Shown here piece by piece: positions 28,586 through 44,428 of a DNA stretch of 64,000 nucleotides. The stretch comes from a bacterium. GTDB taxonomy: Bacteria > Patescibacteriota > Minisyncoccia > Phycocordibacterales > UBA6899. Below the pieces are notes generated by a model. It did no database searches. It was not told the origin of the DNA and saw nothing but the letters and a program-made list of their open reading frames with translations. The position numbers and the translations under genes are program-made. Numbering within the stretch: the stretch's first letter is position 1; the number at the start of each line of letters is the position of its first letter. The stretch is from NCBI GenBank assembly GCA_043756865.1, contig JAYUQG010000005.1, positions 40,614 to 104,613 on the forward strand, read 5' to 3'.

Positions 28586-29731
28586 TTACGCCTTTTTTTC
28601 AATTGGCGTACCAAATGAAAGTGTCATGCGCTGATCCTTTGGCTCAAAGAGCGTAATGGAGAACGGATAGACCTTGCCGAGCTCGAGCGCGGTGCGGAGC
28701 TTCTCCTCGGTGCCAAACTCTGACACGTGGACAAGACCTGCAACGCCCTCCTCGATAGATGCGAGTGCGCCGTACTTGTTGAACTTGATGATAACGCCTT
28801 TCACGGAGTCACCCTTCTTGTACTTCTTCTCAGCACCCTTCCATGGGTTCTCCTTTAGTACCTTCACCGAAAGCGACACCTTGTTATCCTTGATTTCAAT
28901 AATTTGTGCCTTCACGCGCTCACCAATCTTGAAGAGTTTACGTGGATCGTCAACGAGTCCCCAGTCCATTTCAGAGATATGAATGAGTCCCTCGAGACCT
29001 TCTTCAATCTTCATGAATGCGCCGAAGTCCACGATGCCTGTGATGTCGCCTTCGACAATCGAGCCCATGCGATACTTCGCGACAATTTCCTCCTTCTCTT
29101 TCTGGTTGTGCTCTTTCTCAGAGAAAATAAGTTTGCCCTCTTTTGGAACTGCAGTAATCATGACGACCTGAAGCTTTACTCCAACGAGGCGTTTTAGTTC
29201 TTCAAGAATCTTGTCTTTGTCACCGTCTTCAACGCGAGGATAGTGGTCGCCTGAAAGCTGTGATGCGGGAAGAAACCCCGAGATGCCCTGCCAATCAAGA
29301 ATGAGTCCACCCTTGTTTGCGTCTTTGACAGGAAGATCAAGAATTGTCTTCTTCTTTACATATTCTTCTGCTTCGCCCCAGATAAGGGACTGGCGAGCCT
29401 CCTTGAGTGAGAGTTCGACGTAACCGTCATCATTCTCGCTCTCGACTACCTTTGCGGTAATCACATCTCCCACATTCATGTGCTTGATGAGATCGCGCGC
29501 GTTCATGTACTCGCGTCCGTAAATGATGCCGACACCAAAAGGAGGCATGTTTACAAACACGGCCTTCTTGTCGACTTTGAGCACTGGTCCTTCGACGATT
29601 TCTCCGGGGTCAGGACGCTTTACTATTTCCGTCATGAACTTCGCCATCACGTGATCTGGAGAGGGGATATTCTCCGCTCCAACAATGATGACCTCTTCTT
29701 CTTCTGCTGTATCTACTGTTGCTGTAGCCAT
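28586..29731 (-). CDS. rpsA: 30S ribosomal protein S1 (four S1 domains)
   Basis: Repeated S1-domain cores (GDVITAKV..., GSIVEGDITGIVDFGAFMKI..., GDSVKGVIIKFNKYGALASI...). Confidence 0.85.
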   Translation of the reverse strand: MATATVDTAEEEEVIIVGAENIPSPDHVMAKFMTEIVKRPDPGEIVEGPVLKVDKKAVFVNMPPFGVGIIYGREYMNARDLIKHMNVGDVITAKVVESENDDGYVELSLKEARQSLIWGEAEEYVKKKTILDLPVKDANKGGLILDWQGISGFLPASQLSGDHYPRVEDGDKDKILEELKRLVGVKLQVVMITAVPKEGKLIFSEKEHNQKEKEEIVAKYRMGSIVEGDITGIVDFGAFMKIEEGLEGLIHISEMDWGLVDDPRKLFKIGERVKAQIIEIKDNKVSLSVKVLKENPWKGAEKKYKKGDSVKGVIIKFNKYGALASIEEGVAGLVHVSEFGTEEKLRTALELGKVYPFSITLFEPKDQRMTLSFGTPIEKKA

Positions 29732-29898
29732 ATAAAAAATCTGCACTAGGCAGACACTGAATGTTCTACCAGAGAGGGGCCGCATTGAACCTGTGTTCTC
29801 CTCGGGTTAACCCTGACGGTGCTATTAATATTCAGTTGTGTGTAGACACTAACAAATGAAGCATATATTAGCAAGAGAAATCTGAGCAAATACCGGCA

Positions 29899-29936
29899 GT
29901 GTAAAAGTGAACCCCCACGTCTTAGGTGGGGGGATC
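29899..29936 (-). terminator. intrinsic terminator on the minus strand (cccccac-ctaagac-gtggggg + TTCACTTTTAC)
   Basis: Hairpin plus T-rich tail; same tail as the terminator at 30350. Confidence 0.5.
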
Positions 29937-30349
29937 AGGCGATGCAGTCGAAACTAATGCGGGTCCGTGTGGTTAACGGGGATGCCACTCTTTTGACTAC
30001 ATCGGCCGCCGGCGGCCGATCAGGTGTAGAGTTTTTTGTTGGCCATCAGGCCGAAAGTGTTGGTCTGTTTCATCAGTGATTGTCTCCTTCAGGAACACGC
30101 AGTGAACGACTCACTGTGAATACATTATACACGTTTCTTTAATATTGTCAATAAATTTAATTATTTTAGCTCAACCCTTTTCTCTTTCCATAAACTGAAA
30201 TTAAAATTTCCAACTCGTAAAACTATGTCAAGGTTTAACCTTGACATAGTTTACTGTAATAAAATGGCTTAAAATATGCATGTCCTTTATGTGTTATCTC
30301 GTGTCCTTAACAAATGTCCTTTAAAATTAAAGATTATTTTAAAAATGTT

Positions 30350-30390
30350 TTAATAAAAGGTAAAAGTGAAGCCCCGCTTTTGGCGGGGCT
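30350..30390 (-). terminator. intrinsic terminator on the minus strand (agccccgc-caaaa-gcggggct + TTCACTTTTACC)
   Basis: GC hairpin plus T-tract, present on the minus strand only. Confidence 0.6.
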
Positions 30391-30705
30391 GGTAAAAAGT
30401 TATACGCGAGGTTCATTTCGTCGGACTACGAATGGAATGCATTCGACTCCTTTCATCCCCGTTGGCCGTGGGGTAGTTGTGCGGTTGGAGCAAGGCGACG
30501 CTCCGTACCGTGGTTCAGTCGCCGAGCTGGCGACGCGCGCAGGTGCAAGTGCCGATTCCCGTGTGCCGGGCCGCTAGCATGATATGCCTCGTGGCAGAAA
30601 CTCCGCAGGCAAGCCGAATCGCGATTTTGCTCGCGGGGGCATTTCAGGCGGGACCGGTCCCCGCCAAACCCCAGGGGACGCACTACGCACCTCCCGAATT
30701 CCTCT
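30391..30705 (-). ncRNA. GC-rich structured RNA of unassigned class (~315 nt)
   Basis: GC content clearly above the neighbours; only Arg-rich junk ORFs on both strands; near-consensus promoter upstream and terminator downstream on the minus strand; several stable hairpins. Confidence 0.45.
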
Positions 30706-30708
30706 AAG

Positions 30709-30737
30709 AGTGTAGCACTATTTGTGAAACGTGTCAA
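30709..30737 (-). promoter_or_regulatory. sigma70-like promoter TTGACA-N17-TACACT driving the ncRNA
   Basis: Read on the minus strand: ATTGACAcgtttcacaaatagtgcTACACTcttAG. Confidence 0.5.
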
Positions 30738-30835
30738 TAGTTTATCAGTGAGTGTAATTTGTTCAATAAAAAGTACTTATTTTTCAACACATTTTTAGCT
30801 TTTGTTTTTTGAGTGAAATTGCTATACTTTGCCCC

Positions 30836-31477
30836 ATGATTATCACGTACCACGGCGGACAGTTCATCAAAATTTCACAAGGTGATACGGTCATCGCCGC
30901 AAACCCTTTTGGAAAGCAGTCTGCATTTAAGCCTATTCGCTTCGGTGCGCGCATTGGACTTGTTTCGATGAATCATCCTGATATGAATGGTGTGGAGAAC
31001 CTTTCACATGGAGAGAAAGTCCCTTTTGTTATTTCAGGCCCAGGAGAATACGAGATTGGTGGTATCACGGTATCGGGTTTTCTTTCACCAAAGCCTGTTG
31101 GTAAAGATGGCATGTTGAATACGCTCTACACCATTGAACTTGAAGGCATCCGACTTTGCTTGCTAGGTGCGCTGCCCTCCGTTGAACTTTCGAGTGAACT
31201 GCTCGAAGGAATCGGTGAGGTCGACATTCTTATCGTTCCGGTCACCGGCGGTGATGTGCTTACTCCCGCTGATGCGGGGAAAATTGCAGTGACGCTTGAT
31301 GCAAAGTTAGTGATTCCTGTTGGTCACACCGGCACTTCTGACAATCAGCTTAAGGCATTCTTGAAAGAGGCGGGAGCAGAAGACGCGAAGGAGCTCGACA
31401 AATTTACTCTGAAGAAAAAAGATCTTGAAGGAAAAGAGGGTGATGTCGTATTGCTCGAAGCACTTTCACACGCTTAA
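30836..31477 (+). CDS. MBL-fold metal-dependent hydrolase (UPF0173-like)
   Basis: N-terminus MIITYHGGQFIKI...IAANPF typical of small MBL-fold hydrolases. Confidence 0.55.
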   Translation: MIITYHGGQFIKISQGDTVIAANPFGKQSAFKPIRFGARIGLVSMNHPDMNGVENLSHGEKVPFVISGPGEYEIGGITVSGFLSPKPVGKDGMLNTLYTIELEGIRLCLLGALPSVELSSELLEGIGEVDILIVPVTGGDVLTPADAGKIAVTLDAKLVIPVGHTGTSDNQLKAFLKEAGAEDAKELDKFTLKKKDLEGKEGDVVLLEALSHA

Positions 31478-34354: not shown

Positions 34355-34577
34355 GCAGGCGTACAAAACCCACACATTCAGCGCATTGCTTTGTTAAAAT
34401 AAAAATATGCGCTTTACCTTACTCAGAGTAAGGCTCGCTTACATATTTTCATTTTGCCTCGCACTGCATCTGAATCTGCGAGTTGAGCAATTTAACGCGT
34501 TATAAATTCTTATTCATCGAACATCATCCCAACTAACACTCACGAGATGGTTTGGGAATTAAAGTCAGAATACAAAT

Positions 34578-34613
34578 GAAAAGACCCGCAGGAGGTCTTT
34601 TCTCCATGCGGGT
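34578..34613. terminator. bidirectional terminator between gyrA and the convergent gene
   Basis: aaaagacccgca-ggaggtcttttctcca-tgcgggtc. Confidence 0.5.
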
Positions 34614-34624
34614 CTGGTGCGACC

Positions 34625-35026
34625 TCAGTTTGTGCTGGGGTCGTAGGGTGTGATTGGCGAACCCAACCGGAAGTTGCAGGTCAGGCTTGAGTAGCTGAGC
34701 ACCTCGCGTCCCGTGATTTCCCGCAGAGCAGCCACAGGGTTGGGAAGGCCGCGGATGTGCCCCTTGTTTTCGCCGAAGAAAATCATCACGGCGGTACGCT
34801 TCGGGGGCATAAATCGCTGATCCCATTCGTCGTCATTGCCGTACAGGGAACGCTGGCCAAAGATGTCGTAGATGACAATCGCGGGATTGCCACCGTTTTT
34901 GACTGTCGCATGTTGCTCGCGGACATCCACCATGTGGTAGCCCTTTGCACGAAGGCGTTCGCACAGTCTCGCGTCCGTGTTGGAGGCGTTGTAAACAAAC
35001 ATTGGTCGGAACATTGAGTTCTCCAT
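34625..35026 (-). CDS. hypothetical protein (133 aa)
   Basis: ORF with a terminator at its 3' end; no family recognised. Confidence 0.35.
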   Translation of the reverse strand: MENSMFRPMFVYNASNTDARLCERLRAKGYHMVDVREQHATVKNGGNPAIVIYDIFGQRSLYGNDDEWDQRFMPPKRTAVMIFFGENKGHIRGLPNPVAALREITGREVLSYSSLTCNFRLGSPITPYDPSTN

Positions 35027-42802: not shown

Positions 42803-44428
42803 TTACTTTTTCAACCTGACCATCACCTTGGCATCGGCCCCCGTATCGTTGAGGACTCTTGCCATTACGGAGGCATCTGCGGGAAGCTTCCCGAGAAAGA
42901 TCTCAATGACAAAGTGACTGCCACCAGTGTCCCATCTCAGATAGAATTCACCCGACTGCGAGCCACCTTCGTTGGACCATATGCCCCAGCACGACTTCGG
43001 CGTTTTGGCTTTACTGTCGGTTGCAGAAGCGCACTGCCCATTGAAGAGTAGATTCCATTCAGGACGGGATTCATCCAAGAGCACACGAAGGCTGATTTTG
43101 TCTGCAACGTAGCTCTCGTCACCGAGCGGCTTTTTTGTGCCGTGGTAGTTGTATTGAGGAAGACCCTTGTGTGGGTTTGGCTGCTGATACAGTGCCTCGT
43201 ATTTCGGAGCATCTCCGAGCATGAGTGCGGGTTCACGGCGAACCGTGGAGCTCGGCGTAGACATAGCATTTCTGCCGGTCACGACGTCCTTCATAGTTTC
43301 CATACTCGGCACGTTCGGGTTATCCGAAAGGACGGTGTACCCACCCCAGCCCAGGCCACCAGCTGCACCGAGCCAAAGCAGCGCCGGCCCAAGCTTGAGA
43401 CTCTCCTTTGCTTTTCCGCCCGCAGTAGCTACAGCACCGTTTCTCCTGTTCCATGCCCATTTTATCCCCCAAAACACGGGAATATGTAGAATCAGCAGGA
43501 CGAGGGCGTAGCCTGGGTTTTCAGACACCCATTTTGACCACGTTGCTGGTTGTGACCATATGAAGGCAGCGTTGCCCGCTACCTCACCCGTTTTTGAGCC
43601 GCCCGCTTTGATGGGCTTCCTTCCTGCATACGAGTCTTCCCAGACTTTTTTTGCTGGAGGCCAGTACTTGCCCATTTCTTCGAGCGTAATGTTGCCATTT
43701 GCCTCGCAAAGCGATTTGTATGCAGTGGCTTGTTCCGGAGCCCACTTCTTGCGTGCGTCGTCGGAGTGTTTACACTCCATGAGTGCTTTTGTCCACCTGA
43801 GTTGCTTCTGCAGGCGATCGTCTTGGATTTTTACGTCCGCATCGCCCAGCTCGTTTGCCGCAATCTCCGACTGTGGCGTACCTGTGAGCGTGATTCCTAC
43901 CTTTTTGAGGAGGTGGGGATTCATCTGTGGGATCACACCTGCAATGGCCAGCACAACAATGGTACCCGTAATCCACGGCAGCCACTCGTCAAGATGGCTA
44001 TTTGGAAGCAGGAGTGCGGCTGCGATACACACGACAATCACAAGGATTATCTGCGGGAATGCAGTGGGCGCTCCAATCATGCGACAGACGATAGCGACAT
44101 AACCTGCCACAACGGCTGAGATGATCAAGAGGAGGTAGAGCCTCCACACAGACTTCTTTGCAGGGTCGTCTTTGTGGTAGAAGAACTCACCGAGTGCCGC
44201 TATTCCGCCGACGTTCGGCTGCCAGTAGATTTTCGTGAGTAGAATCACGAACAACCACATGGCAATGTTGATTACGCCGTACCCGCCCCAAGCCGTAAGG
44301 CCCCAGAGCGAGAGGAGGTAGACGAGCACGAAGCCGAATACCGCCATCATCTTTCCGTACGCCCAATTTGTGGCGTATACCACTTCGTCTTTCGCCAGCT
44401 TGGCGAGGTTCGATGCGTTGTTTGTCAT
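42803..44428 (-). CDS. large polytopic membrane protein (about 6-7 TM with two large hydrophilic domains), function unknown; VirB6/TrbL-like role is speculative
   Basis: Start set at MTNNASN, overlapping the upstream stop codon (translational coupling). Confidence 0.5.
   Translation of the reverse strand: MTNNASNLAKLAKDEVVYATNWAYGKMMAVFGFVLVYLLSLWGLTAWGGYGVINIAMWLFVILLTKIYWQPNVGGIAALGEFFYHKDDPAKKSVWRLYLLLIISAVVAGYVAIVCRMIGAPTAFPQIILVIVVCIAAALLLPNSHLDEWLPWITGTIVVLAIAGVIPQMNPHLLKKVGITLTGTPQSEIAANELGDADVKIQDDRLQKQLRWTKALMECKHSDDARKKWAPEQATAYKSLCEANGNITLEEMGKYWPPAKKVWEDSYAGRKPIKAGGSKTGEVAGNAAFIWSQPATWSKWVSENPGYALVLLILHIPVFWGIKWAWNRRNGAVATAGGKAKESLKLGPALLWLGAAGGLGWGGYTVLSDNPNVPSMETMKDVVTGRNAMSTPSSTVRREPALMLGDAPKYEALYQQPNPHKGLPQYNYHGTKKPLGDESYVADKISLRVLLDESRPEWNLLFNGQCASATDSKAKTPKSCWGIWSNEGGSQSGEFYLRWDTGGSHFVIEIFLGKLPADASVMARVLNDTGADAKVMVRLKK

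Follow-up and report, generated by a model that had tools for sequence, protein, structure and literature searches.

What kind of gene occupies the GC-rich segment at positions 30,391–30,705 of this stretch of 64,000 nucleotides (nt), hereafter the window? The segment lies in the spacer between two divergent genes, one for a metallo-β-lactamase (MBL)-fold hydrolase (Lactamase_B_3) on the plus strand and the other, rpsA, for an S1-domain protein on the minus strand. A sequence-only reading had taken it for a structured RNA gene that was either a very divergent housekeeping RNA or a lineage-specific RNA. We call the predicted transcript RNA-A and conclude, with a probability of roughly 0.6, that it belongs, as a short form, to a family of structured RNAs specific to its lineage and acts as a translation-coupled regulatory RNA. 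The source genome is that of a Lloydbacteria-like Patescibacterium (Candidate Phyla Radiation, CPR; uncultivated and ultra-small): GyrA, encoded 1.2 kb from RNA-A, is 82–88% identical to GyrA of metagenome-assembled genomes labelled Candidatus Lloydbacteria or Patescibacteria.

The composition of the segment had been described correctly, with a GC content of 0.59–0.65 across 30400–30700 against ~0.30 in the flanks and 0.47 in the whole window. The GC-rich body starts ~7 nt past the predicted promoter, and among the three places in the window where 200 nt reach 60% GC, RNA-A alone is non-coding. We recovered the promoter and the terminator that had been proposed, both on the minus strand only. 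The promoter matches the consensus at 10 of 12 positions and carries a TG upstream of the −10 element, and the terminator stem (30390..30370) of 8 pairs, all but one of them G-C, leads into TTCACTTTTAC. The start of RNA-A was placed 6–8 nt past the −10 element and its end in the U-tract, both ends being inferred. Taken singly, such signals occur at near-chance frequencies (4 promoter-like matches against 2.4 expected, 3 terminator-like matches against 1.9); what exceeds chance is the combination of promoter and terminator and its recurrence at the same place in relatives. An equivalent TTGACA-N17 promoter is found at the matching place in the related loci L161, L081, L083, L192 and L195.

The gene order rpsA, spacer, hydrolase, small open reading frame (ORF), gyrA is kept in >100 Paceibacteria loci, in which the hydrolase-rpsA spacer varies from 170 to 2,900 nt. 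In the closest relatives the spacer contains one or two promoter-to-terminator units. Each of them starts from a TTGACA-N17 promoter beside the hydrolase gene, has a body rich in GC and closes with a similarly tailed terminator. Samples ERR6862846 and SRR22387887 also contain close relatives. Units related to RNA-A were found in four lineages: L161, the closest relative (hydrolase 92% identical), whose contig reaches only the first ~110 nt of the RNA; L192 and L195 (80%); and L081/L082 and L083/L166-168 (77%). Homologous units were seen only in such Lloydbacteria-like relatives, at the same locus and with compensatory base changes. RNA-A has the features that mark this spacer family, namely a unit beside the hydrolase gene that is co-oriented with rpsA and contains the helices P2, P3 and P4 and a mini-ORF gated at its Shine-Dalgarno (SD) sequence.

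Searches of 160 related loci by nhmmer and blastn with RNA-A or RNA-B, the second unit of the spacer, returned no matches; the homology of RNA-A emerged only from visual comparison and from a covariance model. This model, R1, served as an objective test and was built solely from the module of L081 and L083 comprising P3, P4, the CACAAC linker and the SD/AUG hairpin. Its sole match in the 64-kb window lies within RNA-A, over the full model length (19.1 bits, E=0.0081). Across 172 related loci (1.43 Mb) R1 recovered its training copies only; with filters off, it scored 13.6 bits in L195 and 12.4 bits in L192, in each case at the mini-ORF module.

The fold of RNA-A was assessed by comparison with these relatives, as the sequence-only reading had suggested, and compensatory changes were found. 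The long-range helix P2 is the strongest single structural test. Between the window and L192, all 20 of 20 pair cells are canonical while 7 of the 10 pairs have changed on both sides; by a rough estimate, seven changed pairs would all be canonical about once in 1000 times, taking ~0.375 for a random pair. The two strands are anchored by conserved flanks, GCGUCCC past the 5′ strand and UGCGCGCGUCGCC past the 3′ strand, and the 5′ strand of P2 in L161 also carries changes (GGUGCGUUGCGC). In P3, P4 and P6 together, the window, L081 and L083 show 71 of 71 canonical cells, with 7 of 24 pairs changed on both sides, in a structure-guided alignment that favours structure. P6 is canonical in 31 of 32 cells across the window, L081, L083 and L192. 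L081 and L083, which are 91% identical, have 74 predicted pairs, none of them broken, with 3 compensatory and 10 one-sided changes. Together, the R1 match and the compensatory changes in P2 identify RNA-A as a conserved structured RNA, and the GC-rich segment is supported as an independently transcribed structured RNA gene.

Folded independently by minimum free energy (MFE), the window RNA and its L192 counterpart present the same order of elements. The closing helix P1 pairs the 5′ SD-like GGGAGGU to an ACCUC that starts 1 nt past the mini-ORF stop codon, and its equivalent, AGGUG/CACCU, is present in the L081/L083 consensus fold (positions 8-12 with 270-274). In L195 and L007, a hairpin of different sequence stands at the place corresponding to P3, as positioned by eye. 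The architecture of P4 and its loop consensus RUYGCCUY are shared with L081, L083 and L192, whose stems differ by two-sided changes. The 5′ multi-hairpin domain enclosed by P2 is fast-evolving; it has undergone ~30-nt rearrangements between the window and L161 with local hairpins retained. The stems named in the sequence-only reading are present, except that CCCCTGGGG forms no hairpin alone (its loop would be 1 nt), its G-run pairing with a downstream C-run in the predicted fold. The P4 loop (GCCUU) might form a kissing or pseudoknot contact with the SD sequence (AAGG), but this idea was set aside, since just 4 nt are complementary and relatives do not extend the match consistently.

Features of RNA-A and of the neighboring spacer (positions in the window). 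RNA-B is the tandem second unit just downstream of RNA-A.
Feature	Position	Strand	Basis or remarks
RNA-A promoter, TTGACA-N17-TACACT	30709..30737	-	consensus scan; TG of extended −10 at 30717-30716
RNA-A transcript, predicted, ~340 nt	~30360..30703	-	promoter and terminator positions, GC-rich body
5′ SD-like GGGAGGUG	30688..30695	-	MFE folds; GAGGU pairs with ACCUC 30412-30408 (P1)
P2 5′ strand, GGUGC-GU-AGUGC	30680..30691	-	pairs with 30552-30542
P2 3′ strand, GCACU-U-GCACC	30542..30552	-	pairs with 30691-30680
R1 match	30414..30541	-	covariance model
P3 hairpin, GUCGCC-AGCUC-GGCGAC	30518..30534	-	stem identical in L081, L083, L192
P4 two-tier stem-loop, outer CGGU/ACCG, inner GGAGC/GCUCC	30482..30510	-	relatives; conserved loop GUCGCCUU
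CACAAC linker, single-stranded	30476..30481	-	conserved ahead of SD in window, L081, L164, L194, L171 and others
Small hairpin, CCCC-ACGGCCAAC-GGGG	30457..30473	-	just 5′ of SD; CCCN/NGGG hairpin likewise in L164, L101, L090
Mini-ORF SD, AAAGGAG	30447..30453	-	4 nt ahead of AUG; motif kept in all homologous modules
P6 hairpin, pairing SD (GGA/UCC) and start codon (GAAUG/CAUUC)	30423..30450	-	folds, relatives
Mini-ORF, ATG CAT TCC ATT CGT AGT CCG ACG AAA TGA, 9 codons	30413..30442	-	MHSIRSPTK-stop; homologous mini-ORFs
RNA-A terminator, AGCCCCGCC-AAA-AGCGGGGCU then UCACUUUUACC	30358..30390	-	hairpin/U-tract scan
Stretch between RNA-A and RNA-B	30220-30252, 30281-30321	-	perfect 16+1+16 palindrome, AAACTATGTCAAGGTT A AACCTTGACATAGTTT, and AAGGACA copies
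AAGGACA, three direct copies	30321-30315, 30308-30302, 30287-30281		between RNA-A and RNA-B
RNA-B	29903-30151	-	tandem second unit
RNA-B promoter, TTGACA-16-TATAAT	30151-30124	-	perfect; then 5′ hairpin
RNA-B ORF, MKQTNTFGLMANKKLYT-stop	30073-30020	-	SD-preceded
RNA-B terminator	29932-29912	-	
rpsA promoter, TTGCTA-N17-TAGTGT	29874-29846	-	conserved
rpsA promoter and leader	29729-29874	-	conserved
Terminator-like hairpin and U-run in rpsA leader	29755-29739	-	immediately 5′ of ATG 29731
Extended −10 of hydrolase gene, TGCTATACT	30820-30828	+	ends 7 nt 5′ of ATG 30836

The sequence-only reading had recognized no RNA class. We compared the locus with known families. At gathering thresholds, Rfam 15 assigned only six tRNAs in the whole window, ARAGORN found the same six tRNAs and no transfer-messenger RNA (tmRNA), and 12 related loci gave no Rfam match. 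In E-value mode (E up to 10), the 701-nt query 30200-30900 returned noise only (STnc490 on the terminator and miRNA models on the palindrome), and the RNA-B region and the L081 spacer returned nothing relevant, with the proviso that matches below about 10 bits would not appear in such a listing. Since diverged RNase P RNAs of the CPR escape Rfam thresholds and have been found at low scores (PMC8172020), we did not rely on the Rfam result alone. The idea that RNA-A is a very divergent RNase P RNA, tmRNA, signal recognition particle (SRP) RNA or 6S RNA draws on this precedent and on the resemblance to type A RNase P RNAs, including the diverged CPR ones, in being of similar size (~340 nt), GC-rich and structured, with its own promoter and terminator. 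However, the RNase P RNA models RF00010, RF00011 and RF00373 had no match in the window, at 30200-30900 (E up to 10) or in the L081 homologue, and the long-range helix P4 of RNase P RNA, which CR-I GGAAAGUCCGG and CR-V ACAGAANCCGGCUUA form after P1-P3, is not seen in RNA-A. The 5′ end that had been called weakly RNase-P-like, GAGGAAUUCGGGAGG, stands directly after the promoter with no P1-P3 ahead of it; it forms P1 and P2 of RNA-A instead and makes no P4-type pseudoknot. For tmRNA, there is no tRNA-like domain by ARAGORN and no Rfam match, and the strong SD of the mini-ORF is unlike a tag frame. SRP RNA and 6S RNA likewise have no Rfam match, and the fold of RNA-A is multi-branched, not a single extended hairpin. 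The family is moreover variable and modular, with members of ~340 to ~900 nt and embedded translation signals, and it is absent from most syntenic spacers, which span just 170–300 nt in many Paceibacteria. The housekeeping half of the earlier either/or is thus very improbable, and the half that stands, on the units of relatives and their compensatory changes, is the lineage-specific structured RNA. We found no description of the family in the literature searched; it is apparently undescribed, absent from Rfam 15 and lineage-specific. A CsrB-like sponge was also considered and rejected, as RNA-A has 8 GGA motifs in 315 nt, counted by eye, compared with ~6 expected by a rough estimate, which is no enrichment.

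The sequence-only reading had seen nothing but Arg-rich nonsense ORFs in the segment. This holds for the long ORFs on both strands (94, 87 and 76 aa), none of which is conserved. It does not hold for the 3′ part of RNA-A, where a conserved SD precedes a mini-ORF of nine codons encoding MHSIRSPTK. Homologous mini-ORFs read MHHIRDPT-stop in L081 and L083, MVHIHPP-stop in L192, MYIRDSP-stop in L195, MANRIRDSPE... in L084 and V..HN[HR]DPTG... in L169, L171 and L172. Short ORFs of this kind with a ribosome-binding site have homologues in at least eight loci with a ratio of nonsynonymous to synonymous change (pN/pS) <1. For the mini-ORF the ratio is about 0.26–0.35: differences fall mostly at third codon positions, Arg is retained through CGU, CGC, CGA and AGA codons, and amino-acid identity is 0.64–1.0 in frame 0, compared with 0.30–0.40 in the other two frames. 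Translation of the mini-ORF appears somewhat more probable than its silence, and RNA-A is probably a dual-function or leader-like RNA and not purely non-coding. A conserved protein frame in relatives had been named as an outcome that would speak against an RNA gene; a frame of just nine codons within a covarying fold leaves that assignment standing.

A larger frame could make the transcript the mRNA of a small basic protein. The 94-aa ORF (30453..30737, minus strand) starts at TTG, a 76-aa version begins at an in-frame GTG 6 nt behind the perfect SD GGGAGGTG, and its stop codon abuts the SD of the mini-ORF. But the GTG is GCG in L161, the substitutions between the window and L161 lack synonymous bias and are accompanied by indels and the ~30-nt rearrangements, and no equivalent ORF exists in L081, L083 or L192. 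The product would be rich in Arg, Pro and Gly, as expected for a GC-rich non-coding frame, and helices covary through the ORF. The 76-aa ORF of the plus strand has no homologue among 5.8 billion proteins. We rejected the long ORFs as genes, and a small-protein mRNA can be practically dismissed.

A more serious alternative is that RNA-A is a purely non-coding structured small RNA, in which the SD-like and AUG-like sequences would be no more than the 5′ strand of P6, GGGAGGU no more than that of P1, and the mini-ORF a frame that ribosomes never read. The coding signal is indeed confounded by P6: CAUUC in codons 3-4 pairs with the GAAUG that includes the AUG, and UCC in codons 6-7 pairs with GGA of the SD, so that the conserved "codons" could be conserved as paired bases. 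The MFE fold sequesters the SD as well as the AUG, and relatives with MIRAPP units pair their SD with CCUCC, the Pro-Pro codons. Against this, AGGAG followed by AUG or GUG at 4–8 nt recurs in >20 modules with differing pairing partners, Arg is kept across the CGU and AGA codon families at unpaired positions, and amino-acid identity is highest in frame 0. On balance, we consider an entirely non-coding RNA unlikely, though it is the rival to be taken most seriously.

RNA-A is the short form of a larger architecture. Longer units of 450–900 nt are present in L164, L101, L090, L091/093, L100, L007, L081, L083 and L192, and extend past the mini-ORF by a 3′ domain whose core, CCAUUCAAUUGGUAACGC, is almost invariant and was found in 13 related loci. 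The core takes the hairpin form GCGAA-CCCAUUCAAUUGG-UAACGC; its variation preserves pairing (CCA..UGG to CCG..CGG), and its outer stem covaries (GUCCU/AGGAC, CACCCU/AGGGUG, GCUC/GAGC). L195, L084 and L169-172 carry the core variant CCCGUAAUACGGG. In viral contigs, an 18-mer of the core had 18 matches, about the chance number, in an unrelated phage protein gene family with third-position variation, and a 19-mer of RNA-A had one unrelated match. Nowhere in the window does the core occur, even if up to 3 mismatches are tolerated. RNA-A ends where the core begins in L081, L083, L192 and L195: the window has GAACC-UCGCGUAUAAC where relatives have GCGAACCC, the core and CGCAUAUGAGC, and the terminator follows, 22 nt from the mini-ORF stop codon. 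By its sequence, RNA-A is a short variant, the 5′ half of the family architecture with a terminator of its own, and not a full member. The missing core and the immediate end of the unit would also fit a truncated, decaying and non-functional remnant. Such a remnant is hard to reconcile with a near-consensus promoter with an extended −10, a strong terminator, intact P1-P6 and an intact mini-ORF; the closest relative, L161, retains the promoter and the 5′ part, and the GC-rich body has not decayed toward the 30% GC of its surroundings. We regard decay as improbable.

The modules of other relatives encode further peptides. Very short SD-preceded ORFs within GC-rich structured RNA were noted in L006 and L008 (spacer ~348-545 for both) and in L085, L171, L172, L090, L010, L005 and L165. 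A mini-ORF of the form M-[H/N/T]-W-x has 11 occurrences in 9 loci, two copies each in L171 and L172, and always ends in UAG, usually followed by C. L006, L008 and L085 encode MIRAPP(N)-stop, which contains an exact RAPP, with a pN/pS of 0.07 and an Arg codon that switches from CGT to AGA or back.

How might such an RNA act? Ribosome loading on the mini-ORF would compete with P6, which would gate access, and a ribosome at the stop codon would melt P1, whose 3′ strand begins next to it, so that translation would remodel RNA-A. Once terminated, RNA-A could work as a stand-alone regulatory RNA, like the small RNAs (sRNAs) that derive from attenuators with leader peptides. The neighboring rpsA is the obvious candidate target, although its regulation by RNA-A is a guess. 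The mechanism is our inference, because neither a target, nor an antiterminator alternative, nor a downstream gene within the unit was found.

This last result weighs against the translation-coupled reading, and so do several others besides the pairing of the mini-ORF codons in P6 and the missing core. Promoter, terminator and transcript ends of RNA-A are all predictions. The MFE of RNA-A, −138.7 kcal/mol (z = −1.72), is unremarkable for its composition, and the support for structure therefore comes from relatives. The informative homologues are about five (L161, which is partial, L192, L195, L081 and L083). Several alignments were drawn up visually or along the predicted structure, a procedure biased toward that structure, and the mini-ORF peptides were recognized by eye, with the ascertainment bias that this entails. 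As promoter and terminator frequencies and fold energy are singly unexceptional, the case for an RNA-A gene rests on the combination of features and on the relatives.

RNA-A might instead be a cis-acting leader or attenuator of rpsA, with regulated terminators and read-through via RNA-B into the S1 gene. Every unit in the relatives examined is co-oriented with and upstream of rpsA, the U-tracts are interrupted (UCACUUUU), and the motif CACAACU is common to RNA-A and the 5′ end of the rpsA leader. However, a simple rpsA attenuator is disfavored by the conserved promoter and leader that rpsA itself possesses, RNA-B has its own perfect promoter, and no antiterminator alternative was found. In L084, L169, L171 and L172, a protein gene sits between the RNA unit and rpsA, so that the two are not immediate neighbors in every relative. 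A cis-acting leader is accordingly quite improbable, less so only than the housekeeping and small-protein explanations. The intervening gene has its own promoter and encodes a hypothetical protein of 164–174 aa, with a hydrophobic stretch at the start in L169, L171 and L172.

As a candidate translation-coupled regulatory RNA, RNA-A most resembles dual-function sRNAs, in which a folded RNA contains a very short SD-preceded ORF, such as rnTrpL/peTrpL, SgrS/SgrT and SR1/SR1P (PMC7968998, PMC12612679, PMC12310071). rnTrpL/peTrpL of Sinorhizobium is an attenuator-derived sRNA with a leader peptide (PMC7968998). RNA-A shares with this class, by prediction, a short and discrete transcript that has its own promoter, is released at an intrinsic terminator and is conserved in relatives, and in which translation and structure physically overlap. 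Unlike dual-function and attenuator sRNAs, RNA-A is followed by no biosynthetic or other gene within the unit. Classical attenuators are much smaller and poorer in GC than RNA-A, for which neither a base-pairing seed nor a target was identified. The family also resembles raiA, OLE, ROOL and GOLLD in being GC-rich relative to the genome, multi-helical, supported by covariation, equipped with its own promoter and terminator and limited to one lineage; in contrast to these, no Rfam model matches RNA-A. To our knowledge, chains of hairpin-SD-mini-ORF modules and a fixed place upstream of rpsA are not features of raiA, OLE, ROOL or GOLLD.

The exact MIRAPP-stop of L006, L008 and L085 and the Pro-stop ends of several other mini-ORFs recall arrest peptides of the RAPP/SecM type (ApdA, ApdP, SecM). 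RAPP-like motifs near the C-terminus of small ORFs serve stalling (PMC12992588, PMC10951233), and RAPP alone was reported to be insufficient without the N-terminal adjacent region (PMC12992588). In contrast to such peptides, MHSIRSPTK of the window has IRSPT and not R-(A/G)-P-(P/G), the mini-ORFs of the family have 6–9 codons, and a terminator, with no Sec or YidC gene, lies downstream. We therefore downgraded RAPP-type arrest by the window peptide, given its motif RSPT and the reported insufficiency of RAPP, and the 6-residue MIRAPP peptide is, by analogy, at most a candidate for arrest.

A bolder extension, which we put forward as speculative, is that the family forms a new class of CPR RNAs made of chains of hairpin-SD-mini-ORF modules, whose tiny peptides pause ribosomes and which serve as ribosome-sensing or ribosome-parking RNAs beside the S1 gene. 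The peptides I-R-x-P-P/T (including the exact RAPP) and M-x-W-x with UAG, and the several that end in Pro-stop, would then be pausing sequences, and the RNA would let gene expression respond to the state of translation in organisms that have minimal repertoires of regulators. CPR bacteria, or Patescibacteria, make up a large share of bacterial diversity, and almost nothing is known of their regulatory RNAs. The finding adds a covarying structured RNA family with SD-gated mini-ORFs, some of which encode known stalling motifs, beside the S1 gene. Should these mini-ORFs be translated, the family would be a directly testable case of translation-coupled RNA regulation in ultra-small symbionts and supply candidate arrest peptides that are unusually short; should they stay silent, a new family of covarying structured RNAs is gained all the same. 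The finding also cautions that GC-rich islands in CPR spacers are not necessarily "missing" housekeeping RNAs.

The second unit of the spacer, RNA-B, contains an SD-preceded ORF, past which a perfect 20-nt palindrome, ATCGGCCGCCGGCGGCCGAT, precedes the terminator; the terminators of RNA-A and RNA-B end in an identical tail, UUCACUUUUAC. Homologous units in L081, L084, L090 and L101 consist of an SD, an ORF of 9–45 aa starting with M/V-K-T/Q and the motif GCCGGCGGCC, and in L006, L007, L008 and L010 an RNA-B-like unit is fused to the 5′ side of the other unit. Palindromes similar to those between RNA-A and RNA-B (AAGGACA/TGTCCTT and ACATAGG...CCTATGT) are present in the spacers of L006, L008, L084, L090, L094 and L081; these palindromes and repeats may be protein-binding operators or bidirectional terminators.

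The rpsA leader begins at ACAACUGAAUAUUA and contains a conserved GGGUUAACCC-type hairpin. It is the sole part of the spacer alignable by BLAST among relatives, with 74% identity over 198 nt to L007 (E=8e-25). The rpsA ORF, listed from 29785, probably begins further downstream; its likely start, ATG 29731, lacks an SD and lies immediately 3′ of the terminator-like hairpin and U-run. In sequence, the leader looks like an S1-type autoregulatory or attenuating leader. On the opposite strand, the hydrolase gene appears to be leaderless, and the motif AGTATAGCA is conserved among the relatives examined.

The other two GC-rich islands of the window were discarded as sister RNAs: the one at 43188-43439 lies inside a 582-aa ORF, and the one at 34576-34811 is part of a 133-aa ORF on the minus strand (34625-35026), which looks like a genuine gene. 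The latter ORF is located downstream of gyrA, with a promoter-like site at 35117-35089 and a terminator-like site at 34602-34578, and its GC content, higher than that of the rest of the genome, suggests that it was recently acquired.

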